DNA from: Actinomycetota bacterium
GTDB lineage: Bacteria > Actinomycetota > Acidimicrobiia > IMCC26256 > PALSA-555
Direction: 5' to 3'
Assembly: GCA_046086425.1 (NCBI GenBank)
Contig: JBJSXO010000355.1
Span: forward strand, 1 to 34,584
Length of the DNA: 34,584 nucleotides
Below the pieces are notes generated by a model. It was not told where the DNA came from. It did no database searches and saw nothing but the letters and a program-made list of their open reading frames with translations. Made by a program: the position numbers and the translations under genes. Each line of letters begins with the position of its first letter. Position 1 is the stretch's first letter. Below are positions 6,906 through 29,184 of this stretch, piece by piece.

Positions 6906-8702
6906 ATGCCGTTGCGGATCGAGGACTACGCGCTCATCGGGGACACCCAGACCGCGGCGCTGGTCGGCATCGACGGCTCCATCGACTGGCTGTGCGTGCC
7001 GCGGTTCGACTCCGGGGCGGTGTTCGCCTCGATCCTGGGAACCTCCGACCACGGCCGGTGGCAGATCGCGCCGGCGGGCGGGATCCAGCGGGTGGAGCGC
7101 CAGTACCACGGCGACACCTTGGTGCTCGAGACCACCTTCCTTACCGACGACGGTGTGGTGCGCGTCGTCGACCTGATGCCCATCCGCACGAAGGCCGTCG
7201 AGCTGGTCCGGATCGTGGAGGGGGTCTCGGGTCGGGTGCCGATGCACATGGACCTGCGCATCCGCTTCGACTACGGGTCCATCGTTCCCTGGGTCCACCA
7301 GGACGACGGGCGTCTCCACGCGATCGCCGGTCCCGACGCGCTCGTCCTCACCACGCCGGTGCTGCTCGAGGGCGCAGGGGTGGGCCCGAGCACCGTCGCC
7401 GAGTTCGTGGTCGAGGCGGGCGACCGGGTGCCGTTCGTCATGGCGTGGCACGCGTCGCACGAGCCCGCGCCGCGTGCCGGCGACGCCCAGCGACTCCGCA
7501 AGGACACCGTCACGTGGTGGAACCGGTGGTCCGGCGCGGCGAAGTGCCACCCCGAGACCCGTGAGCACATCATGCGCTCCCTGATCACGCTGAAGGCACT
7601 GACGTACATGCCCACTGGCGGGATCGTCGCCGCGCCCACCACGTCACTGCCCGAGTGGATCGGGAGCGTGCGCAACTGGGACTACCGGTTCTGCTGGCTG
7701 CGCGACTCCGTGCTCACCCTCGGCGCGCTCATGGCCGGCGGCTACAAGGACGAGGCGTTCGCGTGGCGGGACTGGCTGCTGCGCGCTGCGGCCGGCGACC
7801 CCGCGGACCTCCAGATCATGTACGGCGTCCAGGGCGAGCGCCGGCTCACCGAGTTCGAGGTCGACTGGCTCCCCGGCTACATGGGCTCGGCCCCCGTGCG
7901 GGTCGGCAACGCGGCCCACGGCCAGTTCCAGCTCGACGTGTACGGCGAGACCCTCGGATCGCTGCACCTCATGCGGACGATGTTCCCGCCCGACGGCGAC
8001 GAGGAGACGACCGACTCGTGGCCGCTCGAGGCGGCGCTGCTCGAGTACCTCGAAGGGGCGTGGCACCACCCCGACGACGGCATCTGGGAGGTGCGCGGCG
8101 AGCGGCAGCACTTCACCCACTCGAAGGTGATGGCTTGGCTGGCCTTCTCGTGCGCGGTGGCGTCGGCCGAGCGGTTCGACCTGCCCGCACCGGTCGAGCG
8201 CTGGCGCCAGGCCCGCGACGAGATCCACACGCTCGTGTGCGCCGAGGCTTACGACGCCGACCTCGGATCGTTCACGCAGGCCTTCGGCTCGAAGCAGCTC
8301 GACGGTGCCCTGCTCCAGCTCCCCATCGTCGGCTTCCTGCCGCCCTCCGACGAGCGGATCCGGGGAACCGTCGCCGCCATCGAACGCGACCTGCTGCACA
8401 ACGGGTTCGTCCTGCGCTACCGGTCGGACCAGACCGACGACGGCCTGCCCGCCGGGGAGGGTGTCTTCCTGCCCTGCTCGTTCTGGCTCGTCGACAACTA
8501 CGTGATGCAGGGGCGCATGGACGACGCACGCGCGCTGTTCGACCGCCTGAGCGGCCTCGCCAACGACGTCGGGCTCTACTCGGAGGAGTACGACCCCGCG
8601 TCGGGACGGATGCTGGGCAACATCCCGCAGGCGTTCACGCACCTCGCCGCAGTGCGCGCAGCCCAGATGGTCACCGGAGCACCACGGCATACGATGCACT
8701 GA
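6906..8702 (+). CDS. Glycoside hydrolase family 15 (trehalase/glucoamylase-like)
   Basis: IEDYALIGD, SIDWLCVPRFDS, APTTSLPE, RNWDYRFCWLRD, GIWEVRG, LYSEEYD and GNIPQAFTH. Confidence 0.93.
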   Translation: MPLRIEDYALIGDTQTAALVGIDGSIDWLCVPRFDSGAVFASILGTSDHGRWQIAPAGGIQRVERQYHGDTLVLETTFLTDDGVVRVVDLMPIRTKAVELVRIVEGVSGRVPMHMDLRIRFDYGSIVPWVHQDDGRLHAIAGPDALVLTTPVLLEGAGVGPSTVAEFVVEAGDRVPFVMAWHASHEPAPRAGDAQRLRKDTVTWWNRWSGAAKCHPETREHIMRSLITLKALTYMPTGGIVAAPTTSLPEWIGSVRNWDYRFCWLRDSVLTLGALMAGGYKDEAFAWRDWLLRAAAGDPADLQIMYGVQGERRLTEFEVDWLPGYMGSAPVRVGNAAHGQFQLDVYGETLGSLHLMRTMFPPDGDEETTDSWPLEAALLEYLEGAWHHPDDGIWEVRGERQHFTHSKVMAWLAFSCAVASAERFDLPAPVERWRQARDEIHTLVCAEAYDADLGSFTQAFGSKQLDGALLQLPIVGFLPPSDERIRGTVAAIERDLLHNGFVLRYRSDQTDDGLPAGEGVFLPCSFWLVDNYVMQGRMDDARALFDRLSGLANDVGLYSEEYDPASGRMLGNIPQAFTHLAAVRAAQMVTGAPRHTMH

Positions 8703-15653: not shown

Positions 15654-16871
15654 ATGGACTTCGACGAGACCCCCGAGGAGATGGCGTTCCGCAGGGAATG
15701 CCGGGCCTTCCTGGAAGCCCACGCGCCCGCCCACGCCGACGACTCCGCCCCGGTCTCGGTCTACATCCGCGACCCGGCCGAGGAGCGCCGTCACCTGGCG
15801 CGTGCCCAGGCCTGGCGGGCCGAGAAGTACGACCACACCTGGGCCGGGATCACCTGGCCGGCCGAGTACGGCGGGCGGGGCGGCACACCCGGCCAGGACG
15901 CCATCTTCCGCAGCGAGGAGGCCCGGTTCCTCAGCACCGGCGGCGTGTTCGCGGTCGGCATCGGGATGGCCGGCCCGACGATCATCGCCCACGGCACCGA
16001 CGCGCAGAAGCAGCGCTTCCTGAAGCCGATGCTGCGCGGGGAGGAGGTCTGGTGCCAGCTGTTCTCGGAGCCCAACGCCGGCAGTGACCTCGGTGGCCTG
16101 TCCACGAGCGCGGCACGAGACGGTGACGAGTGGGTCGTGAACGGACAGAAGGTCTGGAACTCGGGTGCGCACTACTCCGACTGGGGCATCCTGCTGGCGC
16201 GCACCAACCTGGACGCCCCGAAGCACCGCGGCATCACCTACTTCCTCGTCGACATGCACTCGCCCGGCATCGAGGTGCGTCCGCTCCGGCAGATCACCGG
16301 GGCAGCCCACTTCAACGAGGTGTTCCTCGACGACGTGCGCATCCCCCACGCGCACGTGCTCGGGGAGGTCGACGGCGGCTGGGGCCCGATGATGACCACG
16401 CTCGCCACCGAGCGCACGCTGATCGGGAGCTCCCCGCGGAACGCGTTCCCGGCGACGATCGCGCTCGCCCGTCGGATGGGCGTGGCCGACGACCCCGTGA
16501 TGCGCCAGCGGCTGGCCCAGAGCTACACCCGCACCCGGATCCTCGAGTACCTCGGCTACCGCGTGCGGACGGCGGCCACCAAGGGCATCGCGCCGGGACC
16601 GGAGAGCTCGGTGATCAAGCTGTTCCTGTCGCAGCACCTGTCGCTCGAATCCGACATGCTCCTCGCGATGCTCGGGCCCCACGCCACGCTCTGGGACGCC
16701 GACGCGCCCGACGACGGGCGCGGGCAGATGGACTTCCTCGGCCAGTGGAACCCGAAGATCGGCGGGGGCACCGACCAGATCCAGCGCAACACGATCGGCG
16801 AGAAGGTCCTCGGCCTCCCGTCCGAGCCGCGGGTCGACAAGGGCATCCCGTTCCGCGAGATCCCGCGGTGA
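15654..16871 (+). CDS. Acyl-CoA dehydrogenase (FadE-like)
   Basis: WPAEYGGRG, WCQLFSEPNAGSDL, VNGQKVWNS, FNEVFLDDV and IGGGTDQIQRNTIGEKVLGLP. Confidence 0.95.
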   Translation: MDFDETPEEMAFRRECRAFLEAHAPAHADDSAPVSVYIRDPAEERRHLARAQAWRAEKYDHTWAGITWPAEYGGRGGTPGQDAIFRSEEARFLSTGGVFAVGIGMAGPTIIAHGTDAQKQRFLKPMLRGEEVWCQLFSEPNAGSDLGGLSTSAARDGDEWVVNGQKVWNSGAHYSDWGILLARTNLDAPKHRGITYFLVDMHSPGIEVRPLRQITGAAHFNEVFLDDVRIPHAHVLGEVDGGWGPMMTTLATERTLIGSSPRNAFPATIALARRMGVADDPVMRQRLAQSYTRTRILEYLGYRVRTAATKGIAPGPESSVIKLFLSQHLSLESDMLLAMLGPHATLWDADAPDDGRGQMDFLGQWNPKIGGGTDQIQRNTIGEKVLGLPSEPRVDKGIPFREIPR

Positions 16872-18061
16872 CCAGCGGTCACGACGGCGTCCGGGTCGCG
16901 GTGGGCCTGACCCGGCGGGCCGGCGGGCGGGTGCGGCGGACCGCCACGGTGACCTCACCGGCGCTGGGCGCCCCGGACCTGTGGGTCGAGGTCGACGAGG
17001 CCCACGCCGCCGAGGTCACGGACCGGGCCGACCCGTTCCTGCTCCTCACGCTCACACTGGCCATGCGGGAGGGCCGGGACCTCACGGTCACCGGGGCCCC
17101 GGTCGACGGGGAGCTGCTGCGCCGCCTGGTCGAGTTCCAGCGCATCTGGCACGCCTGGTTCGACCTGACGCCGGTGGAGGTCCACGCCGAGGCGAGCACC
17201 ACCCGCGGCGACCGCGACGCTGCGGTCGTCGCGTTCTCGGGGGGCGCGGACTCTGCGTTCAGCGCGTGGTCCCACACGGGCGGTCGCGGCCGGCAACCGC
17301 TACGGGGCGCGATGATGATCCACGGGATGGACGTCCCACTGTCGGACCCCGAGGGCTTCGCCCGGGCGATGGGCCGCGCTCGCCGGATGACCGACAGCCT
17401 GGACCTCGACCTCACCGTGGTGTCCACCAACGCGTGGACGCTGCCCGTGCCGATCAGGCAGTACACGGGGATGGGGGTGGCCGCGGCCCTCCACGTCCTC
17501 GGGGGCCGCTACGGGGCGGGCCTGATCCCCTCCACCGCGACCTACCGCGGTCTCGTCGTGCCGCTCAACAGCAGCCCGGTCAGCGACTGGCTGCTCGGGG
17601 GTGACGGATTCGCCATCGTCCACGACGGCGCGGCCGCGAACCGGTTCGAGAAGCTCACGGCCCTCTGCGCCTGGCCCGAGGCCATGGAGTCCCTCCGCGT
17701 CTGCCTCGTCGACCCGCGCCACGACCGCAACTGCGGCACCTGCCACAAGTGCATGATGACCCTCGCCGCCTTCCGGGTGCTCGGCGTCGACGCGCCGTGC
17801 TTCGACGCCGTGCCCTCGGCTGCGCAGTTCACCGACTGGGCCCGGCGCTGGCCGAGTGGCCGGTACCACCGGCAGGAGGGCCTGGTGCTGGTCGACGCGG
17901 CCCGGGAGCGCGGGGTGGACGAGCCCTGGGTGCGGGCGTTGCGCAACCGGATCCGGGTCGCGCAGCTCAAGGACGGCGTGCGCGCCGCGTGGCCCGGTCT
18001 GGCCGACGGCGTCGCGTCGGCCCATCGGCGGGTGCGGGCAATGGGCTCCCCCCGGGGCTGA
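16868..18061 (+). CDS. QueC-like PP-loop (adenine nucleotide alpha-hydrolase) protein with Cys-rich Zn site
   Basis: GTGA overlap with the ACAD stop; FSGGADS PP-loop; LRVC-x8-CGTCHKC; 397 aa with an N-terminal extension not present in canonical QueC. Confidence 0.75.
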   Translation: MTSGHDGVRVAVGLTRRAGGRVRRTATVTSPALGAPDLWVEVDEAHAAEVTDRADPFLLLTLTLAMREGRDLTVTGAPVDGELLRRLVEFQRIWHAWFDLTPVEVHAEASTTRGDRDAAVVAFSGGADSAFSAWSHTGGRGRQPLRGAMMIHGMDVPLSDPEGFARAMGRARRMTDSLDLDLTVVSTNAWTLPVPIRQYTGMGVAAALHVLGGRYGAGLIPSTATYRGLVVPLNSSPVSDWLLGGDGFAIVHDGAAANRFEKLTALCAWPEAMESLRVCLVDPRHDRNCGTCHKCMMTLAAFRVLGVDAPCFDAVPSAAQFTDWARRWPSGRYHRQEGLVLVDAARERGVDEPWVRALRNRIRVAQLKDGVRAAWPGLADGVASAHRRVRAMGSPRG

Positions 18062-20615
18062 CCCGACCACCCGCGCCCGCTCGGCGCAGGCACTCGTCGA
18101 GCCGGGCCGCGAGCACGTGCACGTGGGGCTCACCGATCATCGAGTCGTGGTCGCCCGGCACCTCGATGCACTCGATCCCCGCGGTCGCCACCCGGGCCCA
18201 CCCCAGGTCGGCCGATCCGGCCGTGCGGCGGACGGGCTCGGCGGAGAACACCGTCACCAGCGCAGGTGCGGGCCCGGGGGTGAACCCCCGCTCACGGGCG
18301 AACGCGGCCGCCCAGTCCAGGACCGCTCCGGTCCCGGGGAGGTGCTCGACCGGCCGGGGCGGGTTCCGCCCGAAGAGCTGGCGGACCCGCCACGCCACGA
18401 TGCTCGGGCCCCGGCGACTGCACAGCTTGCGCACCCGGTACCAGAGGGAGTGCCGCTGCGCCCACCGCGCCCGCACCAGATCGGGGTGGATGGCGTCGGC
18501 GATGCCGACGAACTCGACCGCGTGACCCTCGGCGGCGAGCCGGCACGCCGTCTCGTACGCCACCATCGCACCGAGCGAGTGCCCGAACAGGCGGTACGGA
18601 CCGTCGGGGGTCACCTCCCGCACCAGACGCGCGCAGGTCGTGGCGATCTCCTCGATCGAGCCGGCTGCGTCCGCGGGCCCGTGCATCGACGGCATCCACA
18701 CCCCGAAGACCGGCTGGTCCCGGCCCAGGGTCGCCGCGAGGTGGCGGAGCGTCACCACCGAGCCGGCCCGCATCACGCAGAAGAGCGGCGGCCGGGTTCC
18801 GTCGGGCTGCACCGGGACCACGAACGACGCCGACGGGTCCGCCGGCTCGGCCCGCAGCAGCGCCGCCATCCGGCGCACGGTCGCGCCGTCGAAGAACACG
18901 GTGGCCGGCAGCGGCCGGCCGAACGCCCGCTCGAGGTCGAGGAGCAGCTCGGTCGCGTGGAGCGAGTCACCCCCGAGATCGAAGAAGTCGGCGTCGATGC
19001 TCGGGAGCTCGTCGTCACCGAGCACCCGCTGCCAGATCGCGGCGATCTCCCGCTCGAGGTCGTCGGCGGGGGCGGCGCCCGGAGCCGCGCGCGTCGACGC
19101 GGTGAACCCGAGCCGGTCGGCGAGACCCGTCCGGTCGAGCTTGCCGGTCGCGCCCCGCGGGATCTCGTCGACGGCGACCACGCGTCGCGGCACCTTGTAG
19201 GGCGCGAGCCGCTCGGCCGCGTACCGGCGCAGCTGCGGTGCGGTGACGGTGGCGTTCGCCTCCAGTACGACCGCTGCGCCGACCTCCTCCCCCAACCGCG
19301 GATGGGGCACCGCGAACGCCACTGCGTGCTTCACCTGGGGATGGGTCAGCAGCACGTCGTCGATCGCGCGCGGGGCCACCTTCTCGCCGCCTCGGTTGAT
19401 GATCTCCTTGAGGCGACCGGTGAGCGTGACGACGCCGTCGGCGTCGACGAGCCCCTGGTCGCCAGTCCGGAACCAGCCGTCCTGGAACGCCGCCGCCGTG
19501 GCCTCGGGCGCGTCGAGGTACTGCGTCGCGACCGACGGCCCCCGGATCGCCAACTCCCCGACCGCACCCGGGGTGAGAACGCGCCCGTCCTCACCGAGGG
19601 CCACGACCTCGCAGCCGACCGCGCGGCCCACCGACCCTGGCGTGCGCACACCGGGTGGGCGGGCGTTGCTCGCGATCTGGTGCGCGGCCTCGGTCATCCC
19701 GTAGGCCTCGATCACCGGCACCCCGAGCACCCGCTCGAGCTCCTCCATCAGTCTCGCGGGCAACGGGGCCGACGAGGAGCGGACGAAGGTGAGCGACGAC
19801 CGGATCGGTCGATCCGCGGTTGCGCGCGGACGGCTGACGTCGAGCATCGCCTGGTGGATGGTGGGCACCGCGGTGTACCAGGTCGGTGACATCGTGTCGA
19901 TCCACTCCCACACCGACGCCGCGTCGAATCCCGGTGCGCAGATCACGCTGCCGCCCTGGCTCAGCGGCGCGAGCAGTCCGGCCACGAGGCCGTGGATATG
20001 GAACAGCGGCATTACGTCGAGACACCGGTCCCGGGGCGTGAGCCCGAGTGCGGCGGCCACGTTGGCGGCCGAGGCCACGAGCGCGTCCTCGCACAACGGT
20101 ACGAGCTTCGGGCGGCTCGTGGTCCCCGAGGTGAAGAGCAGGAGCGCAGCGTCACCCCGGTCACGCGATGGCGCAGGGGCCGGCGCGTCGTCGGGCACGA
20201 CCAGGTCGAAGGCCCCGGCCCCCGCACCGGGAACCAGCTCGAGCACCGGGATGCGCAGCGCCGTCGCCGCGTCGCGAGCGGCCGTGTCGTGACCCTGCTG
20301 GACGATCACGGCGCGCGCCCCCAGGGCCTCGAGATCACGCGCGTGCTCCGCCTGGGGTCGGTCGGTCGCGAGGGGGGCGCACACTGCAGCCGCCGTCACG
20401 CCGAGGAACGCCACCGCGAGGTCGGCCCCGTTGGGCAGGGCCAGCGCAACCGGCGCGTCGGGCCCCAGACCGGCGGCGCCGAGGCGGTCCCCCACCCCCA
20501 CCACCTGATCGAACAGCTCGCGGTGCGTCGCGTCGCGACGTCCCGGCGCCAGGAGCGCAGGTTGGTCACCGGACGACGTCGCGCCGGCGCGCAGCAACTC
20601 GAGGAGCGACGCCAT
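17967..20615 (-). CDS. NRPS-like A-T-TE enzyme (acyl-CoA-ligase-type adenylation domain + carrier protein + thioesterase)
   Basis: A domain: FTSGTTSRPK, MPLFHIHG, EAYGMTE, FRTGD, GRLKEIINRGGEK, PRGATGKL. Carrier: FFDLGGDSL. TE: FGHSLG and VPGDHDSM. ATG 20615; 882 aa. Confidence 0.9.
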   Translation of the reverse strand: MASLLELLRAGATSSGDQPALLAPGRRDATHRELFDQVVGVGDRLGAAGLGPDAPVALALPNGADLAVAFLGVTAAAVCAPLATDRPQAEHARDLEALGARAVIVQQGHDTAARDAATALRIPVLELVPGAGAGAFDLVVPDDAPAPAPSRDRGDAALLLFTSGTTSRPKLVPLCEDALVASAANVAAALGLTPRDRCLDVMPLFHIHGLVAGLLAPLSQGGSVICAPGFDAASVWEWIDTMSPTWYTAVPTIHQAMLDVSRPRATADRPIRSSLTFVRSSSAPLPARLMEELERVLGVPVIEAYGMTEAAHQIASNARPPGVRTPGSVGRAVGCEVVALGEDGRVLTPGAVGELAIRGPSVATQYLDAPEATAAAFQDGWFRTGDQGLVDADGVVTLTGRLKEIINRGGEKVAPRAIDDVLLTHPQVKHAVAFAVPHPRLGEEVGAAVVLEANATVTAPQLRRYAAERLAPYKVPRRVVAVDEIPRGATGKLDRTGLADRLGFTASTRAAPGAAPADDLEREIAAIWQRVLGDDELPSIDADFFDLGGDSLHATELLLDLERAFGRPLPATVFFDGATVRRMAALLRAEPADPSASFVVPVQPDGTRPPLFCVMRAGSVVTLRHLAATLGRDQPVFGVWMPSMHGPADAAGSIEEIATTCARLVREVTPDGPYRLFGHSLGAMVAYETACRLAAEGHAVEFVGIADAIHPDLVRARWAQRHSLWYRVRKLCSRRGPSIVAWRVRQLFGRNPPRPVEHLPGTGAVLDWAAAFARERGFTPGPAPALVTVFSAEPVRRTAGSADLGWARVATAGIECIEVPGDHDSMIGEPHVHVLAARLDECLRRAGAGGRVSPGGSPLPAPADGPTRRRRPDRATRRARRP

Positions 20616-20625
20616 CGGGAGGAGT

Positions 20626-21606
20626 CTACGAACGGGTCCGGAGACGGCGGCGCAGATCCTCGAGCCGCCCGGTCGCGTCCCCCACTGCTGCGGCCGGGTC
20701 GGCGCCGTGGCGCAAGCGCCACGCCGGGAGCCGGGCCAGCGCGCCGCATACGCCGAACAGGTCGGGACGGACATCGGCGTCCACGAGCGCGAGGCTGGCC
20801 CCGAGCAGCTCGCGCATCACGTCGGGACCGGGCAGCGGGGTGACCCCCGGGCCGTCGGCCGAGCCACCCGAGGTGACGGCGACCGCGACCACCGGGCGCT
20901 CCCCGGAGGCGAGCGTCCCGGGCGGGAGCTCGACGCGCTGGCGCAGGTCCTCGGGCACGCCCCGGCCCCCGGCGATCGACCCGGCGACCACGTCGGCTGC
21001 GACCGCCACGGGTCGGGGTACGCCGCGCGCGAGCACGCGGTCGTCCCGACGCTCGAGCAGCACCGCGTCGTCGGCGAGCACGGGCCAGCCGAGCAGGTGC
21101 GCAGCGTACGCAAGTGTCGACTTCCCCGTCCCCGTGCCGCCCACCACGAGCAGCACTGCGTCGTCGACGACCAGCGCCGCACCGTGGAGCAGGTGGCGCC
21201 CCCGCCGGGCGAGCACGTGGGTGAGGCAGACCAGCGCGACGAACCGGAACTCCCGAGCGAGGCCGGGCGCGTCACCCCCCACCACGATGGCGTGCGGCGT
21301 GCACCGCGCGGTGAGCCCGGCGGAGCTGCGGACCGCGAGCTCCCCCGGGCCCGTCCACCAGAGGTCGACGTAGTCGAGGGCACGATCGGGGTCACGGTCC
21401 GGCACCGCAACCGCCGCCGCGTCGAAGCGAAGGTGGCACGCCGGCGCGCCGGCCACAGTGGCTGCGTGACGGAAGAGCGACGCCCCCGCGTCGGCCCGCA
21501 CCCCGTCGGCGGCACCGAGCCCGACGGGGACACCGCCGACCTCCACCACGGTGCCGGCGCGTACGTCGGCCGCGTCGACCTCCGCGACGGAGGGCGGTCC
21601 GCTCAC
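20626..21606 (-). CDS. HPr kinase-like P-loop kinase (RiPP/lasso-cluster type)
   Basis: LLHGAAL...VGGTGTGKSTLA...VLADDAVLL. GTG 21606 overlaps the upstream stop (GTGA); 326 aa. Confidence 0.85.
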   Translation of the reverse strand: MSGPPSVAEVDAADVRAGTVVEVGGVPVGLGAADGVRADAGASLFRHAATVAGAPACHLRFDAAAVAVPDRDPDRALDYVDLWWTGPGELAVRSSAGLTARCTPHAIVVGGDAPGLAREFRFVALVCLTHVLARRGRHLLHGAALVVDDAVLLVVGGTGTGKSTLAYAAHLLGWPVLADDAVLLERRDDRVLARGVPRPVAVAADVVAGSIAGGRGVPEDLRQRVELPPGTLASGERPVVAVAVTSGGSADGPGVTPLPGPDVMRELLGASLALVDADVRPDLFGVCGALARLPAWRLRHGADPAAAVGDATGRLEDLRRRLRTRS

Positions 21607-23159
21607 CGGCGCGCCCCCGCACCGAGACGCCGGGCCAGCCGGACGGCCCCGGCCACGGTCGTCCGGGGAACCCGCTGCACCGCCCCGGCGGCGGGACCCC
21701 AGCGCACATACGGTCGCGACGGGGAGACGGCCGTCACCCGGCCGATGAGCGCCGACGGCGCGACCGGCGGGTCGGCGCGCACGCAGGTATCCCCCTGGAA
21801 CCGGTGCCGGGCGCCTACCGCGCCCCGGTGCCGGTGCACCACGATCTCTCCCTGCGGGCCGCAGAACGCCCACACTTCTCCGCGCGCCGGTCCGGTCGCC
21901 CGGGCCTCGATCCGCACGCGGGTGCCGCTCGGGAGCGACCAGCCCATCGACCGGCCTGACACGTCCAGCCACAGCGGCTCCTGCTCGGCCCGGGTCCGGA
22001 GGAGTCGCGCGGTGGCGTCGGCGTCGCAGTGCGGCGCGGGCCTCGGGTCGCCGGTGATCCGTGCCCGCAACGCAGCACGCCGCCGGTGCATCGTGCGGAC
22101 CCTCCCGCGCAGCAGGCGCACCGGATAGGGCCCGGGCAGGTCGGCGTACCAGACCGCGACCGCGGCCGGCGGCGGGACCGGGACTCGCCTGGTGGCGCCG
22201 ATCGCGTCGCGGAGCCGACCCCGCACGAGGAAGGGCAGCGCCTCCTGGCGGCGCGAGCGGGCCGTGCCCGCACTACCGAGCAGGGTCACGCGCTCGGGCC
22301 AGACGGCTCGCCACACCCGCGCGCGTGGCCCCGAGGGGACCGGTCCCGCGGGTCCGCTGAGACCGAGCGCGGCGGTGACCCGTGCCCGCGCGCCGGCCAC
22401 GATGATGTCGAGCCCCTCGGCGCGCGTGTAGCGATCGACGAACCCCCAGTCGATCTCCTCGCGCGCGAGGACGCGCGCGACGTCGGCGTAGCCGAGGAGC
22501 GCGGGGAAGCTGTCCTTGTTCATGTGCACGAGGAAGTGGACGAGCGCAACCTCGGGGTCGAGCACCCGCACCGAGGACCCATCCGGCAACTCGTGCCCAC
22601 GGGTCCGCTCCCACACCAGGTCGGGCCGACGCGCCGGGAACCCGAGCTTGTAGAGGTCGAGGTGGAGGTCGACCGGCACCCCGTCGACCCGTGCGCCCAC
22701 GGACTGCAGCACGTTGACGCGGGCCAGGGCACCGGCGTCGGTCCCGAGCGGATGGCCCGGTGCGAGCACGGCGAGGATCTCGTCGAGGCGGCGGGCCGCG
22801 CCCGGCTCGAGCAGGACGTCGACGTCGGTGCACGGCCGTTCCCCCCTGCGCCGGTACCACCGGGCCTCGGCGGTGACCCCCTTGATCGCAGCGACCTCGA
22901 CCCCGATCGCCGCAAGGTCGTCGCGCACCCGCACCAGGGCCGCCTCGAGCCGGCCGTGGCGGTGGCGGACCGCGGCGTCGAGGCCTGCGAGCCGCACGCG
23001 CGCGGGGGCGTCGGGCGCGTGCTCGCGCACCCAGCTCCACAGCAGGCCCGTCATCCCGTGGCCGTTCGCGGCGTCGACGAGGCCGTCGTCGCCGTGCGGG
23101 AACACGCCGGGCGCGCGACCGGCCGCCAGATCCAGGAGCGCCGGATGGGGTCGGGTCAC
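21603..23159 (-). CDS. Nucleotidyltransferase (NTP_transf_5-like) fused to a C-terminal S24/S26 signal-peptidase-like domain
   Basis: N-terminal part: AIKGV...R.CTDVDVLL, VDLH, PEVALVHFLVH. C-terminal part (~22020-21603): VSGRSMGW...GEVWAF...VVHR...FQGD...DPPV...LIGRV. Confidence 0.82.
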   Translation of the reverse strand: MTRPHPALLDLAAGRAPGVFPHGDDGLVDAANGHGMTGLLWSWVREHAPDAPARVRLAGLDAAVRHRHGRLEAALVRVRDDLAAIGVEVAAIKGVTAEARWYRRRGERPCTDVDVLLEPGAARRLDEILAVLAPGHPLGTDAGALARVNVLQSVGARVDGVPVDLHLDLYKLGFPARRPDLVWERTRGHELPDGSSVRVLDPEVALVHFLVHMNKDSFPALLGYADVARVLAREEIDWGFVDRYTRAEGLDIIVAGARARVTAALGLSGPAGPVPSGPRARVWRAVWPERVTLLGSAGTARSRRQEALPFLVRGRLRDAIGATRRVPVPPPAAVAVWYADLPGPYPVRLLRGRVRTMHRRRAALRARITGDPRPAPHCDADATARLLRTRAEQEPLWLDVSGRSMGWSLPSGTRVRIEARATGPARGEVWAFCGPQGEIVVHRHRGAVGARHRFQGDTCVRADPPVAPSALIGRVTAVSPSRPYVRWGPAAGAVQRVPRTTVAGAVRLARRLGAGARR

Positions 23160-23180: not shown

Positions 23181-23459
23181 TCAGCCGGCGATGCCGTCGC
23201 CCGGCACGACGAGCCCCGCGGCCTCGACCTCGTCGAGGAACGCGGCGATGTCCCGGGCCACGGTCTCGACGGGGACGTCGTCGAACCGGTCGGCGAGATC
23301 CGCCGCCAGCTCCGCTGGCCCCCGCTGCCCGTCGAGGGCCAGCCAGACCAGGGTGCCGACCTCGTTCAGGGTGAGCAGCTCCTCGCCCCGGGGGTCGACG
23401 AGCACCGCCTGACCGTCGACGACCTCGGAGACGACTCGGGGCGACCGCTGCCACGCCAT
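23181..23459 (-). CDS. PqqD-family RiPP recognition element (RRE)
   Basis: 92 aa: VVDGQAVLVD...LLTLNEVGTLVWLALDG...LADRFDDVPVETVARDIAAFLDEVEAAGLV, the characteristic stand-alone PqqD pattern. Confidence 0.92.
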   Translation of the reverse strand: MAWQRSPRVVSEVVDGQAVLVDPRGEELLTLNEVGTLVWLALDGQRGPAELAADLADRFDDVPVETVARDIAAFLDEVEAAGLVVPGDGIAG

Positions 23460-23465
23460 CGGGTC

Positions 23466-23471
23466 AGGTTA
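23466..23471 (-). promoter_or_regulatory. Putative -10 box (TAACCT) of a leaderless pqqD-operon transcript
   Basis: TANNNT hexamer 6 nt upstream of ATG 23459, with no SD. Confidence 0.55.
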
Positions 23472-23526
23472 GGCCCCGGGATGCGGGCCCCGGGACGAGA
23501 ACCGCCGGTCCGGTGCCGCCCGGACC

Positions 23527-23607
23527 TATCATTCGGGGCCGGCGTCGAGGACCCCGAAGCGCCGGGGACCGTCGAAGACCATCACCACCCACGAAGACGA
23601 CTGGGAG
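23527..23607 (+). promoter_or_regulatory. Putative -10 (TATCAT, 23527-23532) and SD (GGGAG, 23603-23607) for the small peptide gene
   Basis: AT-rich hexamer in otherwise very GC-rich DNA; GGGAG lies 5 nt before ATG 23613. Confidence 0.5.
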
Positions 23608-23612
23608 CAGCA

Positions 23613-23699
23613 ATGCGCTACGAGCCACCGACCATCGTGCGCCGGGACCGGCTCGCCGGCCTTCTCATCGCCAAGAGCGACATCCCCGCCCCCACCTGA
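23613..23699 (+). CDS. Putative RiPP precursor peptide, 28 aa: MRYEPPTIVRRDRLAGLLIAKSDIPAPT
   Basis: SD-preceded ATG, an N-terminal YxxP(xI) RRE-binding motif, and a position divergent from the PqqD gene. The ORF track shows it only as the tail of shadow ORF 22029..23699. Confidence 0.75.
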   Translation: MRYEPPTIVRRDRLAGLLIAKSDIPAPT

Positions 23700-23729
23700 G
23701 CTCGATCATCTGAGCTCGATCATCTGAGC
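23696..23729 (+). repeat. Tandem repeat of CTGAGCTCGATCAT (14 bp x 2.4)
   Basis: Exact copies at 23696-23709 and 23710-23723, plus CTGAGC at 23724-23729; overlaps the precursor stop codon. Confidence 0.9.
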
Positions 23730-23947
23730 CCGGACACCCGAGCCCGGGCGCACGCGTCGGGAGCGCCGCACCCGTCCGGGCGACCCGCATCGGCTAGCCT
23801 GTGGGCGAGTCCACCACGGGTGGGCCGGGTCCCGGGCCGTGGCGCTTCGTCGCCTCCGGCCGGCCGGCGTGAGCCGGCGCTCCATCTGGGGCCGACTCCG
23901 AGGACTGCGGTCCTCCAGACCCGCTCAGGCGGAAGATCGATGCACCG

Positions 23948-26900
23948 ATGACGACATCGCCCGCGCCGACCGTGCCGGCGTGGCAATTCGAGCTCGCGGT
24001 GGAGGACGATGCCGACGGCAACGCCTCGCCCGAGCAGCACTCCCTCCTCGAGGCCGACCGGCCCCGCTGGCAGGCGACCCTCAACACGTTGCTGCGGGCC
24101 GCCGAGCAGCACCTCGCCGCCGCCCGCCGACTCCAGGGCCCCGAGCGAAGCCAGGTCCTCGCCGATGCCGAGGCCGACCGCCAGCGCCTCCTCCTCGCGT
24201 GGTCCCGGCTGACCGGCATCGAGATCGAGGTCACGGCCCCCCGCGCCGGCGCGTCGGGCCCGGCCGAGCGCGAACCCGACGCCGACAGCCTCGCGCCCGC
24301 CGTCGTCGCGCTCCAGGTCTCGTGGGAGCCGGGACGGGTGGTCGCCTGGGCCGGCGGCCCCCGCTGCGAGCCGGGCGCGGCCGCCGCGGTTCTCGCGATG
24401 CTCGCGGAGGCCGAAGCCCCCGAGGCGCCGTGGACCCCCCACGCAGGCGTGACGCTCCCCGACGGCGGGCGCGCCGAGGCGTTCAGCGCGCCCGTGGGTG
24501 AGGTGCTCGGCTGGCTGGTGGCCGCCGGCGCCGGCCAGGTCGACGCCGAGGTCGGGGCCAGCGTCCGGTGGCTCGGCCGGGTCGCGATCTGGGCGGTCGA
24601 GCTCACCGCCCGCGGCGCCATGGTGCCGCTCCTCCGCCAGCGGCGGAAACGCAACGGGAGCAGCCGCAGCACCTCCGCGTCGTACTCCGTGCGCTGGACG
24701 CCGGCGCTCGTCGACGCCGACCGACTGGCCGACGTGGTCGCCGCGATGCCCGGCAGCGTGCGCGCCCTCGACACCCGCGTCGACGCCCGCGCGCTGACCC
24801 GCTCGGCCCTCACCGGGATGGTCGACGCCATCTGCCGGGACAGCGCGCGTCGCATCGAGGTGCCCGCACCCCCGCCCGTGGTGCGCTCGGCCACCGACGT
24901 CACCGAAGCCTTCCTCGCCCGCCTCGACGGCAGCGCGTTCGACGCACCGATGCGGGTCGCCGACGACCTCGTCACCAAGGCCGAGCGTTGGGCGCGCGGC
25001 GTGACGCGTGAGCAGCGTCCCCTGCTCGTCCGGCTCGAGGCCCCGCCCGCCGGTGACCCGGCCTGGGACCTCGCCGTGTTCGCCCCGAGCCCCGACGGCA
25101 CCCTCGTCCCGATCGAGCGGGCCATCGTCGACGCGCGCAGCGAGCGTGCGGAGCTCGAGGACGAGATCGGGCGCATCGAGCGCATGGTCCCGGCGCTCGC
25201 CCGCCCGAGCACACGCCGCGGGCACACCGTCGTCGACCAGGCGGAGGCGTGGGAGCTGATGGTCGACATCGGGCCGCGTCTGGCGGCCGCGGGGTTCGCC
25301 GTGCAGGTCCCGGCGCTCAGCCTGCGCCGGCCCGCGCCGTCGCTGCGGGTGTTCGCCGAGCAGACCGAGACCGCGGTCGGCGCGAGCCAGCTCGCCGACG
25401 TCCGGTGGTCGGCAGTGTTCGACGACGTCGAGCTCACCGCCGCCGACATCGCCCGGCTCGCCCGGGAGGCCCGGCCGCTGATCCACTCGCGTGGCCGCTG
25501 GGTCGCGCTCGACAAGGCCGACCTCGACGCCGCGGCCGCGGCCCTCGCGGAGCGGGCCCAGACCACCCAGCTCTCCGGGGCCGACATGCTGCGCCTCGCG
25601 CTCGGCCTCGACGGATCGCCGCTGGCCGGCGGCATCACGGTGGCGGGCGGCGGCTGGGCGGCGGAGCTGCTCGCGGCGGCGGCCGCGGTGGACGGCACCC
25701 CTGCGACCGAGCCCGACGGCTTCGTCGGGGAGCTGCGCACCTACCAGGCCGACGCGCTGGCGTGGCTGGGCTTCCTCGAGTCGGCCGGCATCGGCGGCTG
25801 CCTCGCGCTCGACATGGGGCTCGGCAAGACCCCCACGATGCTCGCGCACCTCACCGAGGCCGCCGACCGGGGGCCGGCCCTGGTGATCGCGCCTCCTGCG
25901 GTCGTCGGCAACTGGGCGTCCGAGGCCCACCAGTTCGTCCCCGGCCTGCGGGTCAAGGTCCACCACGGGGCCAACCGGGCCGACGCCGACGAGATCGCCG
26001 CCGAGGTGGCGGGCGCCGACGTCCTCCTCACCACCTACGGCACCGCGGTGCGCGACATCGAGGCCATCGAGAAGGTGGACTGGGCGACGCTCGTGCTCGA
26101 CGAGGCCCAGGCGATCAAGAACGTCGCCAGCGACACCGCCCAGCAGCTCCGGCGGATCCCGGCCCGCGTGCGCGTCGCGCTCACCGGCACGCCCATCGAG
26201 AACGGCCTCGGTGATCTCTGGGCCATCCTCGACTTCACCAATCCGGGGCTCGTCGGCCCCCGGCCCCAGTTCGTCGCCAGCCTGTCGGGCGACGAGTCGT
26301 CCAAGGCCCAGTCCGCGGAGCACGCGCTCCGCGCGCTCAACGGCATCCTGGTCTTCCGGCGGACCAAGGCCGAGCCGGCGATCGCGGCCGAGCTGCCCGA
26401 CCGCATCGACGAGCTCGACCACTGCTCGATGACACCGGAGCAGATCGGCCTCTACCAGGCCGTGCTCGACAAGCTCGTGCTCACCACCGATCTTCCCGAC
26501 GGCGAGGAGCCCCGCAAGGGCCAGATCCTCGCCGCGATCACCGCGCTCAAGCAGATCTGCAACCATCCGGCGGCGTACCAGGATGACGACGGGCCGCTCG
26601 GGGGCCGGTCCGGAAAGCTCGCGCGCCTCGAGGAGATCGTGGACATCGTCTACGCGGCGGGCGAGCGCGTCCTGATCTTCACGCACTTCGCCGAGTGGGG
26701 CATGAAGCTCGCCACCCATCTCACCGAGCACACCGGCACGCCGGTGGAGTGCTACCACGGCGGCCTCTCCCGGACCGCGCGCGACAAGATCATCGAGGAC
26801 TTCCAAAACGGTGAAGGCCCGGGCGCGCTGGTGCTGTCGCTGAAGGCCGGCGGGACGGGCCTGAACCTCACCGCCGCGAACCACGTCGTGCTCTACGACC

Positions 26901-27540: not shown

Positions 27541-29184
27541 TCAACCGTCGTCCGACACCATGCCTGCGTCGACCCGCAGCACGCGGTCGAAGGCCACGGT
27601 GTCGAGCAGCCGGCGGTCGTGGGTGACCAGCAGGACCGTGCCGGGGAACTCCGCCAGCGCCTGCTCGAGCTGCTCGATCGCCGGCAGGTCGAGGTGGTTC
27701 GTCGGCTCGTCGAGGACCAGCGTGTTGACCCCGGTGGTCTGGAGGAGCGCGAGCGCAGCACGGGTGCGCTCCCCCGGCGAGAGCATCGCCGCGGGCCGCT
27801 CGACGTGCGCGGCGCCGAGCCCGAACTTGGCCAGGACGCTGCGGGCGTCGCTGATCGTCACCCCCGTCGCCGCGATGAACGCGTCGACCAGCGCGGTCGT
27901 CCCGGCAAACGTGGCCCGGGCCTGGTCGATCTCGCCGACCACCACGCCGGGGCCGAGCCACTGCGTCCCCGCGTGCAGTTCGACCCGGCCGAGCAGGGCA
28001 TCGAGCAACGTGGACTTCCCGGCACCGTTGGGACCGACGATGCCCACCGTCTCCCCCCAGCCGATCTCGAGGGTCACCGGGCCGAGCGAGAAGCGGTCGC
28101 GCGCCACCACCGCCTGGTCGAGGCGCGCCACGACCGCGCCGGCGCGGGGGGCGCACGCAATGGAGAACTGCAGCTCCCACTCCTCCCACGGCTTCTCTAC
28201 GACCTCGAGCCGCTCGAGCGCGCGCTCGCTGCGCCGGGCTCGCGACGCAAGTTGCTCGGTCTGCTCCTTGCGGAAGCCCCGCCCGGCACGATCGGCGTCC
28301 TTCGGGCTCGCTTTGCCCTTGGCGACCCCACGGTGTGCCCACTCCCGCTCGCGCTGGGCCCGGGCGGTGAGCGCGCCACGCTGGCCCTGGTACTCCTCGT
28401 ACGCGGCCTCGGCACGCCGTCGGGACACGTCGCGCTCACGCAGGTACGCCGAGTACCCACCCGCGAACGTCGTGATCGTGTGGTCGTGCGCGTCCAGATC
28501 GGCGACGTCGGTGACGACCCGGTCGAGGAACGCGCGGTCATGGCTCACCACGACCAACGGTCCCGTGAACCCGAGCGCGAAGCGCTCGAGCTGGTCGAGA
28601 CCGTCGAAGTCGAGGTCGTTCGTCGGCTCGTCGAGCAACAGGACGTCGAAGCGCGCCAGCAAGATGGCGGCCAGCCCGACCCGCGCGGCCTGACCTCCCG
28701 AGAGCGTGGGCATCGTGGCGTCGAGCAGCGAGCCGGCCGCGAGCCCGAGCGTCTGCACCACCTCACCGGCACGAGCGTTGAAGTCGGCCGCCCCGAGCGC
28801 CAGCCACCGTTCCAGCGCCGCGCTGTAACGGTCGTCGGCACCCTCGGCACCGTCGGCGAGCGCAGCCGTCGCCGCGTCGAGCGCGTCCTGCGCGTCGGCG
28901 ACACCGGTCCGGCGCGCAAGGTAGGCCATGACCGACTCACCCGCCCGCCGCTCCGGCTCCTGGCGCAGCTCACCCACGGTCGCCGTCGGCGGCGCCGTCT
29001 CCACCGACCCGGACTCGGGGTGCAGCCGGCCCGCGAGAACGCCGAGGAGCGTCGACTTCCCCGAGCCGTTGGGCCCGAGGACGCCGAGACGCTGGCCGGG
29101 CGGGACCACGAGGTCCACGTCCTCGAGCACGGGGTGGGGGCCGTAGGCGAAGGTGACGCCCCGGGCTCGCAGCGTCGCCGGCAT
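27541..29184 (-). CDS. ABC-F family ATP-binding protein
   Basis: Two ABC domains (GPNGSGKST/LSGGQ/LLDEPTND and GPNGAGKST/LSPGE/VLDEPTNH), an interdomain linker, and no TM segments. Confidence 0.93.
   Translation of the reverse strand: MPATLRARGVTFAYGPHPVLEDVDLVVPPGQRLGVLGPNGSGKSTLLGVLAGRLHPESGSVETAPPTATVGELRQEPERRAGESVMAYLARRTGVADAQDALDAATAALADGAEGADDRYSAALERWLALGAADFNARAGEVVQTLGLAAGSLLDATMPTLSGGQAARVGLAAILLARFDVLLLDEPTNDLDFDGLDQLERFALGFTGPLVVVSHDRAFLDRVVTDVADLDAHDHTITTFAGGYSAYLRERDVSRRRAEAAYEEYQGQRGALTARAQREREWAHRGVAKGKASPKDADRAGRGFRKEQTEQLASRARRSERALERLEVVEKPWEEWELQFSIACAPRAGAVVARLDQAVVARDRFSLGPVTLEIGWGETVGIVGPNGAGKSTLLDALLGRVELHAGTQWLGPGVVVGEIDQARATFAGTTALVDAFIAATGVTISDARSVLAKFGLGAAHVERPAAMLSPGERTRAALALLQTTGVNTLVLDEPTNHLDLPAIEQLEQALAEFPGTVLLVTHDRRLLDTVAFDRVLRVDAGMVSDDG

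Follow-up and report, generated by a model that had tools for sequence, protein, structure and literature searches.

The stretch of DNA analysed here (the window; 34,584 nucleotides, contig JBJSXO010000355.1 of assembly GCA_046086425.1) belongs to a metagenome-assembled genome (MAG) of a freshwater actinobacterium and has a G+C content of about 73-77%. On its minus strand, one real gene (21603-23159) encodes a protein in which a nucleotidyltransferase (NTase) is joined to a soluble protease resembling signal peptidases. The gene starts 21 nucleotides past the stop codon of a gene for a PqqD-family recognition element of peptides made by ribosomes and modified post-translationally (RiPP recognition element, RRE) and is followed by genes for an HprK-like P-loop kinase and an adenylation-PCP-thioesterase protein (A-PCP-TE; PCP, peptidyl carrier protein), while a small open reading frame (ORF) that may encode a precursor peptide diverges from this operon (Table 1). 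PqqD, fused gene, HprK-like gene and A-PCP-TE occur in identical order in the window and in two related loci, L001 and L005.

An initial reading made from the sequence alone (the sequence-only reading) had described one continuous ORF of 518 residues and had named read support at the junction and the numbers of fused and split homologs as points to be checked, and all of these speak for a genuine fusion. Third-position GC of the ORF amounts to 0.87-0.95 in a single phase from 21640 to 23139, the scan revealing no change of phase at the domain junction, and the AlphaFold model of the whole protein reaches a pLDDT of 87.1 and a pTM of 0.73. Among 120 relatives listed from a collection of 5.8 billion proteins, 36 align over 88% or more of the query with 43-68% identity (lengths of 469-839 residues), one covers 80%, and 83 comprise the NTase part only (58-76% of the query). 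In species-representative genomes the full fusion is present at five loci (L001-L005) from differently named MAGs, and a sixth copy is cut by a contig end. Seven other genomes of the window's own genus yield four full-length fusions, one copy cut by a contig end and one genome without a match, and G007 of this genus has the NTase without the peptidase domain; no match to the fused protein was obtained in 33 genomes that belong to the family or order but to other genera. The junction (about 22000-22100) is spanned by Logan contigs of the sequencing runs X2 (21500-22821, eight substitutions, no gaps), X3 (21722-22147, no gaps) and X4 (21923-22073), with no indels or joints listed at the junction in the contigs of these runs. 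Since the four runs stem from a single study and the window's source sample may be among them, the independent homologs are the stronger argument for the fusion. The region between the two domains belongs to the NTase part, because tblastn matches to it are also found with the unfused NTase homologs of the NTase-only loci L007-L015.

The N-terminal domain (residues 25-254) matches PF14907 (NTP_transf_5) with E 4.5e-24 and 85.8 bits, at a cut-off of 31.2, and the same family is matched by 34/34 fused homologs. In these 34 sequences K93-G94, R108, D112-x-D114 and D164/H166/D168 are invariant, so that the KG...R..DxD signature, from which an NTase had been postulated at the outset, now stands together with a family match above cut-off. 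NTases of the Pol-beta type carry a catalytic pattern consisting of G[GS], followed by DxD and then a third carboxylate, and the fused protein conforms to it through G94, D112-x-D114 and D164/D168. Foldseek, run with the whole model, retrieves the nucleotidyltransferase folds of MenT1 and TM1012 (E 5e-4 to 5e-3). Judged by its sequence, the N-terminal part is a full-length PF14907 nucleotidyltransferase of the LppN/PsmN kind, named after enzymes of RiPP clusters discussed below.

In the C-terminal part, the motifs G402-R-S404-M405, V441-H442-R443, G456-D457, D463 and L471-x-G473 (I-G473-R-V) are invariant in the 34 fused sequences, except for D463, which is retained in at least 90%. When the standalone forms are included, Ser, Met, His and Arg remain invariant and D463 is present in 90% or more of each set; all 34 fused forms have D457, but three of six standalone ones have Val there. 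The highest mean hydropathy over 19 residues (Kyte-Doolittle) is 1.23, the usual threshold for a transmembrane segment being about 1.6, and neither terminus carries a hydrophobic segment. Therefore no membrane anchor is predicted, and the protein is not a canonical signal peptidase and should act in the cytoplasm. Searched singly, the C-terminus of the window protein reaches PF00717 with E 0.14 and 12.3 bits, below cut-off, and matches nothing in NCBIfam. A profile of the whole protein gives no match at E<=1 against PDB sequences, and a hit to an alcohol dehydrogenase, obtained with the single C-terminal sequence against the PDB, is a chance match besides which nothing meaningful appeared. As this C-terminus by itself is weak in Pfam and NCBIfam, its assignment to the S24/S26 proteases rests on its homologs, a PDB profile, a structural model and fold searches.

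Among the 34 fused homologs, 19 match PF00717 at E<=0.01 (best 2.5e-8) and three match the model TIGR02228 for signal peptidase I of the archaeal/ER type (best 3.7e-6). Models for SipW (NF046067, E 0.22), for bacterial signal peptidase and for the NiSOD maturation protease are matched by single homologs, and no LexA or UmuD family model is listed for any of the 34. The AlphaFold model of residues 374-518, with the alignment of homologs as input, has a pLDDT of 89.6. When it was compared with 48,161 chains in a fold search independent of Foldseek, the top five matches, aligned over 85-92 residues with Z between 8.0 and 9.5, were all members of the clan: the LexA C-domain (Z 9.5, rmsd 2.9, 85 residues aligned), SipA (Z 9.4, rmsd 2.9, 88 aligned), the lambda cI C-domain (Z 8.3), E. 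coli signal peptidase (Z 8.2) and human SEC11C (Z 8.0). The next matches were unrelated small beta-barrels (Tudor-like; Z<=7.0, about 50 residues), and Foldseek on the peptidase-domain model finds the same families with E 5.5e-4 to 1e-2. The fold by itself does not separate S24 from S26, but a profile of 12 domains (six fused, six standalone) does, as against PDB sequences it finds signal peptidase I (4me8_A) with E 1.8e-4. In the profile alignments Ser404 coincides with the Ser of GSSM in 4me8_A and with the corresponding Ser of SpsB and LexA. His442 is placed opposite the Lys in VAKR of 4me8_A, the Lys in YVKR of SpsB and the mutated K156 position of LexA, and thus occupies the position of the general base. 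A His in this position is reportedly a hallmark of SipW/Sec11-type enzymes. From sequence comparison, the C-terminal part is in all likelihood a soluble, cytoplasmic serine peptidase of the SipW/Sec11 type (S26B-like), of the LppS kind. An S26-type peptidase without membrane anchor, recognized by GRSM...VVHR...GD...IGRV and set apart by SM plus HR instead of KR, was just what the sequence-only reading had proposed, and the motifs, the hydropathy and the position of His442 bear it out; from the domain mapping in Pfam that it had suggested, the NTase emerged above cut-off and the peptidase, for the window protein itself, did not.

By its sequence, the peptidase domain is a member of a large family. 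The number of cluster representatives retrieved with the domain profile is 11,460 at E<=1e-3 and falls to 742 at a limit of 1e-10 and to 54 at one of 1e-30, and among the best 150 most are apparently standalone proteins of about 100-190 residues (133 of up to 192, seven of 200-299 and ten of at least 300 residues). Pfam searches with 18 proteins (17 representatives and P0003 from the homolog listing; six without any family) indicate that the domain has repeatedly been fused to other tailoring enzymes: to an NTase in P0164 and, going by the homolog listing, also in P0009 and P0044, to an HprK-like protein in P0191, to both in P0003 (839 residues), to PqqD in P0197, to ATP-grasp in P0265 and to a GMC oxidoreductase in P0218, and in P0207, a fragment, it is joined to Asn_synthase.

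Table 1. Features of the locus and of related loci (positions refer to the window unless another locus is named).
Feature	Position	Strand	Remarks
Fused NTase::S26B-like peptidase gene (LppN-like + LppS-like)	21603..23159	minus	518 aa, GTG start
PF14907 nucleotidyltransferase domain, residues 25-254	22398..23087	minus	G94, D112-x-D114
Helical middle region, residues 255-375	22035..22397	minus	from secondary structure of the whole-protein AlphaFold model
Predicted S26B-like peptidase domain, residues 376-518	21606..22034	minus	N-terminal helix, beta core, C-terminal basic helix
Ser404 codon	21948-21950	minus	
His442 codon	21834-21836	minus	
Asp457 codon	21789-21791	minus	
Asp463 codon	21771-21773	minus	
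PqqD-family RRE, 92 aa	23181..23459	minus	PF05402, E 7.7e-18
Candidate precursor peptide, 28 aa (MRYEPPTIVRRDRLAGLLIAKSDIPAPT)	23613..23699	plus	YxxPxI leader motif; divergent from operon
HprK-like P-loop kinase, 326 aa	20626..21606	minus	GTG start overlaps fused-gene stop (GTGA)
A-PCP-TE, FadD-like A domain	17967..20615	minus	likely ATG at 20615
PP-loop (SGGADS) protein	16868..18061	plus	convergent with operon; start uncertain (GTG 16868, 16901 or 16931)
A-PCP-TE copies	L001 10437-13181; L002 7253-9634; L003 6714-9200; L005 10555-13104		
PP-loop protein homologs	L005 6461-7492; L001 13228-13536		

Genes at the related loci were called with a greedy ORF picker (126 ORFs, 103 of them sent to Pfam; L018 and some distal rows omitted). 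With a profile built from 12 homologs, the RRE finds the lasso RRE TbiB1 (5v1u, 1.8e-14), 9x8z_B (3.2e-9) and 9x90_B (1.6e-7) in the PDB, the latter two entries being leader complexes of LppB and PbaB1, respectively (Popov et al., Nat Commun 2026; PMC13381572, of which parts are cited here). Residues N32, V34, D70 and F74 are invariant in the 12 sequences and correspond to N33, V35, D70 and F74 of LppB, which contact the Tyr and Pro of the leader (PMC13381572). The kinase is assigned by matches to PF07475 (E 4.1e-4) and TIGR04352 HprK_rel_A (1.2e-8), both below cut-off, and syntenic homologs occur in L001, L005, L011, L016-L021 and L027. For the A-PCP-TE, Pfam assigns AMP-binding (9.3e-66), PP-binding (1e-16) and Thioesterase (7.4e-22) domains. 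It follows the fused gene in 5/5 fused loci with enough flanking sequence, also in those devoid of PqqD and kinase, and is a putative member of the pathway; its linkage may reflect acylation of the peptide or a separate role. The PP-loop protein has a weak QueC-like Cys cluster (CxxCxxC-like; QueC E 0.83 for the window, 0.053 for L005), no Pfam family at 1e-3, no relative in the PDB, and its nearest ESM Atlas clusters are without a family. No exporter is encoded in the window's operon, an ABC protein at 27541-29184 consisting of two ATPase domains with no membrane domain, and neither a sigma-70-like promoter nor an intrinsic terminator was found in 23400-24000.

Alignment of the DNA upstream of PqqD from the window, L001, L005 and L006 revealed a conserved element which on the opposite strand starts with ATG-CGC-TAC-GAG. 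A pattern search then brought up ORFs for peptides of 28-39 residues starting M-x-Y-E-x-P-x-[IV], among them one each in the window and L005. The ORF in the window, which had not been listed in the sequence-only reading, is preceded by a GGGAG Shine-Dalgarno site five bases upstream of its ATG and has G or C at 26 of 28 third positions. When 293,813 bases were translated in six frames, all matches to the precursor pattern (11/11 strict, 15/15 relaxed) lay beside PqqD or S26-like genes, and this confinement is an internal control for the precursor family. The N-terminal consensus is Y-x-x-P-x-[IV]-x-[RQK]-[RK]...[LI]-[AE]-[GA], with YxxPx[IV] present in 15/15 candidates, and the C-termini vary; precursors of the fused type share a Ser-Asp located five to nine residues past [LI]-[AE]-[GA]. 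Some ORFs carry two to three leader-core units in tandem, each with YxxPx[IV]xRR, as in L001 (about 7056-7500, minus strand, three units), and multi-unit precursors also occur in G007 (L033, 81-603, minus strand). Directly past the stop codon of the candidate precursor in the window, a 14-bp unit (gctcgatcatctga) is found twice in tandem (23700-23727).

In six split loci (L016-L021) the genes stand in the order PqqD, ABC ATPase, ABC-2 permease, HprK-like (encoded on the opposite strand) and standalone peptidase of about 140-190 residues, in five of the six a PF14907 gene lies further on, and in all six one or two precursor genes are situated about 45-90 bases past the peptidase gene. This agrees with the earlier statement that S24/S26 domains occur as separate genes in some PqqD-associated cassettes. 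In the split-type L020 (2-4949), a non-ribosomal peptide synthetase of the type C-A-PCP-TE, a second thioesterase and a phosphopantetheinyl transferase adjoin the PqqD, ABC, kinase and peptidase genes, neighbours that echo the A-PCP-TE linkage of the window. Reduced clusters are seen in L002 and L003 from the window's genus, in which the fusion and the A-PCP-TE are retained, with the Ser/His/Asp and NTase residues intact, and in which no PqqD, HprK-like gene or precursor is present at the locus; an unrelated gene takes the place of PqqD and precursor upstream of the fused gene (L002, 4676-5479; L003, 4178-5059, minus strand). The only PqqD homolog in the genomes of these species (G002, G004) is encoded on another contig. 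In the 17 kb around it there are no matches to the HprK-like kinase, the NTase or peptidase parts, A-PCP-TE, the PP-loop protein, ACAD, the 14904 ORF or SNF2, and a scan for the precursor motif in the 3.2-kb loci around these lone PqqD genes gave nothing. Therefore the fused enzyme may not strictly need PqqD, kinase and precursor. More distant homologs that comprise the NTase only adjoin Transglut_core3 genes (lasso B2-type) in L014 and L015, the latter also having Asn-synthase and PqqD, so that in these relatives a lasso cysteine protease holds the place beside the NTase. In L015 (4853-9192) the genes run Asn_synthase, an unknown protein of 308 residues, Transglut_core3, and PF14907 as two ORFs, perhaps due to a frameshift. 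In L027/L033 (G007:C54) NTase, HprK-like gene, PqqD and precursor stand in a different order, and a weak S26-like match of G007 (E 1.1e-9) lies on another contig inside an open frame of 829 codons.

A cyclase-free cluster type of matching gene content, lppA-K-B-S-D-N, has been described from Paenibacillus alginolyticus (PMC13381572). These clusters for linear polyphosphorylated peptides (LPPs) encode a precursor, the HprK-like LppK, the RRE LppB, the SipW-like LppS, an exporter and LppN, an 'uncharacterized NTP transferase', and have no cyclase. According to the cited parts of this work, polyphosphorylation by LppK takes place at core residue Ser3, leader removal by LppS strictly requires LppB, cleavage is lost with any of the substitutions S29A, H68A and D93A, and the N-terminal helix of LppS contacts LppB. 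Compared by eye with LppS of its Supplementary Data 1, the peptidase domain of the window is collinear in the N-terminal helix, GTSM/GRSM, VAHR/VVHR and KGD-x5-D/QGD-x5-D, so judged S29, H68 and D93 correspond to S404, H442 and D463. Because the gene set matches that of the cyclase-free LPP clusters, and with PF14907, an S26-like peptidase, an RRE and an HprK-like protein (sub-threshold) together in one cluster, the gene probably represents an LppN::LppS fusion within an LPP-type RiPP maturation pathway, and the cluster most likely matures a small phosphorylated peptide.

Upon the domain identities, conserved catalytic residues, neighbourhood and precursor family observed at these loci, a course of maturation can be sketched by analogy. 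The precursor would bind to the PqqD-type RRE through its N-terminal YxxPxI motif, and the HprK-like kinase would phosphorylate a Ser of the core, for which the conserved Ser-Asp a few residues past the predicted cut site is the candidate. The RRE would then offer the leader's end, which reads L-A-G in the window and L-E-G in relatives of the split type, to the peptidase domain, probably via the N-terminal helix 380-393, and Ser404, His442 and Asp463 would cut it, probably after Gly16 of L-A-G. The NTase domain, with its catalytic residues intact, may decorate the phosphate or the peptide, and the fusion would keep leader cleavage and NTase tailoring on one polypeptide. A coupling of leader removal to nucleotidylation, which had also been suggested from the sequence at the outset, is conjectural.

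Some alternatives concern the protein itself. That two genes were merged by misassembly or a frameshift might be thought of, as the genome was assembled from a metagenome and is fragmented (404 contigs, completeness 82%), but homologs collinear over at least 88% of the length from many assemblies, five full-length loci from different named MAGs, contigs of three runs crossing the junction without indels and an unbroken coding phase make such an artefact next to inconceivable. If the C-terminal domain were instead a LexA/UmuD-like, self-cleaving switch of the NTase or a non-catalytic chaperone like SipA, its two best structural matches, the LexA C-domain and SipA, would be accounted for. SipA, however, is not known to have catalytic residues, whereas Ser, His and Asp are conserved in the window family, and for self-cleavage the base position is occupied by His and not by Lys, the standalone forms of 140-190 residues have nothing to release, the linker between the domains (about residues 366-378) varies in length and sequence, and LexA/UmuD matches are not listed for the fused homologs; this explanation seems very improbable.

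Other alternatives accept the protease and concern its pathway, and several facts weigh against the LPP-type assignment. The window protein reaches no S24/S26 family threshold in Pfam or NCBIfam, the identification of the kinase is built on sub-threshold matches, and the equivalence of S404/H442/D463 with S29/H68/D93 was judged by eye. The precursor leaders lack the FET-xxS end, the corresponding part being replaced by [LI]-[AE]-[GA], and the predicted core has no Ser at +3; no exporter is present in the operon, unlike in LPP clusters; LppN was silent, with no detectable activity, in the published system as far as the cited parts describe it (PMC13381572). Furthermore, two of the five fused loci with flanking sequence (L002, L003) lack PqqD, kinase and precursor, and the link to A-PCP-TE (5/5) is tighter than that to PqqD and HprK-like genes (3/5). 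The fused enzyme could thus work mainly with A-PCP-TE, acting on a product that is acylated or made non-ribosomally or on a peptide whose gene lies elsewhere, PqqD, kinase and precursor being accessory and lost in some species, and the intact active-site residues and the different upstream gene of L002 and L003 would fit such a role. Yet we know of no pathway in which an S26 peptidase acts on a substrate bound to a carrier protein, standalone peptidase homologs lie directly upstream of precursor genes in split loci, most of which have no A-PCP-TE, and the published LppS acts on a ribosomal precursor (PMC13381572), which renders this view unlikely. The sequence-only reading had let the S26 domain replace the B2 protease of a lasso pathway, and one might imagine that the PP-loop protein, or a cyclase whose gene lies elsewhere, closes the ring. 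Leader motif YxxPxI and RRE are of the lasso type, distant NTase homologs occur with B2 and Asn-synthase (L015), the fragment P0207 joins an Asn_synthase domain to the peptidase domain, and the PP-loop protein, of no known family, is kept in the window, L001 and L005. Against a lasso product, no PF00733 (Asn-synthase-type cyclase) is found among the window genes scanned, a search that did not extend to the rest of the genome, PF13471 (B2) has no match in the genome (82.4% complete), and the PP-loop protein bears a weak resemblance to QueC and none to Asn synthase. In addition, an Asp/Glu that could form the ring is not obvious at positions 7-9 of the core (about 11 residues), an Asp falling at +7 only if cleavage takes place after Gly16, as proposed here, and cyclase-free clusters give linear products (PMC13381572). 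A lasso pathway is accordingly unlikely, whereas a stand-in for B2 as leader protease, the other half of that claim, remains plausible in view of the B2 genes beside distant NTases and of the LppS precedent.

If the LPP-type assignment is correct, this module would also exist in uncultured freshwater actinobacteria, beyond Bacillota, to which LPPs are restricted according to the discussion of PMC13381572, although its Supplementary Data 1 includes two Actinomycetota signal-peptidase homologs. The cyclase-free LPP pathway type is already known, published in 2026, and the first report of a SipW-like serine peptidase that serves as leader protease in a RiPP pathway dates from May 2026 (PMC13381572); in the literature searched, no other LPP or SpI-like work was found. 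What is new is that the two enzymes are fused, that the host is an actinobacterium, that genes for A-PCP-TE and a PP-loop protein are linked to the cluster, and that some precursors are multi-cassette. Fusions of an NTase to a leader peptidase are now seen for two proteases that are unrelated to each other, namely B2 (firmicute lasso clusters) and the S26-like domain (window), which argues that the NTase step is functionally tied to leader removal. For learning what LppN-type proteins do, the fused protein is a convenient handle, because both activities reside on one polypeptide. It is conceivable, if quite speculative, that freshwater Acidimicrobiia-like actinobacteria have rebuilt the LPP machinery, with the NTase::peptidase as a checkpoint that frees only fully decorated peptides and the A-PCP-TE, perhaps with the PP-loop ATPase, then acylating or joining the peptide. 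The product would in that case be a ribosomal/non-ribosomal hybrid phosphopeptide, cut in some species from multi-cassette precursors.

Among known proteins, the C-domains of LexA, UmuD and lambda cI (S24) belong to the same clan as the peptidase domain and include its best structural match, LexA, but they cleave themselves with a Ser-Lys dyad where the window domain has His442, and standalone relatives of the window domain have no N-terminal domain to cleave. Closer are the SipW, Sec11 and archaeal type I signal peptidases, which we take to be MEROPS S26B, sharing the fold, the Ser in an SM motif, His in place of Lys and an Asp after GD. The window domain differs from them in being without a membrane anchor, in its proposed substrate, a leader presented by the RRE instead of a Sec signal peptide, and in its size of about 140 residues, its fusion to another enzyme and its scores below the thresholds of the family models.

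With regard to complete pathways, firmicute lasso clusters have an NTase gene between B2 and the transporter which 'in several cases' is fused to B2, and PsmN, an NTase from the pseudomycoidin cluster, attaches hexoses to phospho-Ser (Zhu et al., 2016 and Zyubko et al., 2019 on paeninodin-like peptides and pseudomycoidin, as summarised in PMC8498205, of which parts are cited). As in the window, the NTase is joined to or placed beside a leader peptidase and accompanied by an HprK-like kinase; B2 is, however, a transglutaminase-like cysteine protease which works with a cyclase, whereas the window has a non-homologous Ser/His enzyme and no cyclase. From the LPP clusters, with their MsbA-like pump and the leader consensus YxxPxVLxHQxIxFETxxS (PMC13381572), the window differs in that LppN and LppS form one polypeptide, in its host, a freshwater actinobacterial MAG, in the absence of an MsbA-like exporter from the operon, an ABC-2 type pump being present in split relatives, in a leader without the FET-xxS end, in the linked A-PCP-TE and PP-loop genes and, in some relatives, in several leader-core cassettes within one ORF. 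Shared with them are the YxxPx[V/I] leader, the discrete PqqD-type RRE keeping the N, V, D and F contacts, the HprK-like kinase, the PF14907 NTase, the lack of a macrolactam cyclase and the soluble SipW-like Ser/His/Asp peptidase, in which N-terminal helix, G-x-SM, V-x-HR and GD followed after five residues by D stand in the same order.

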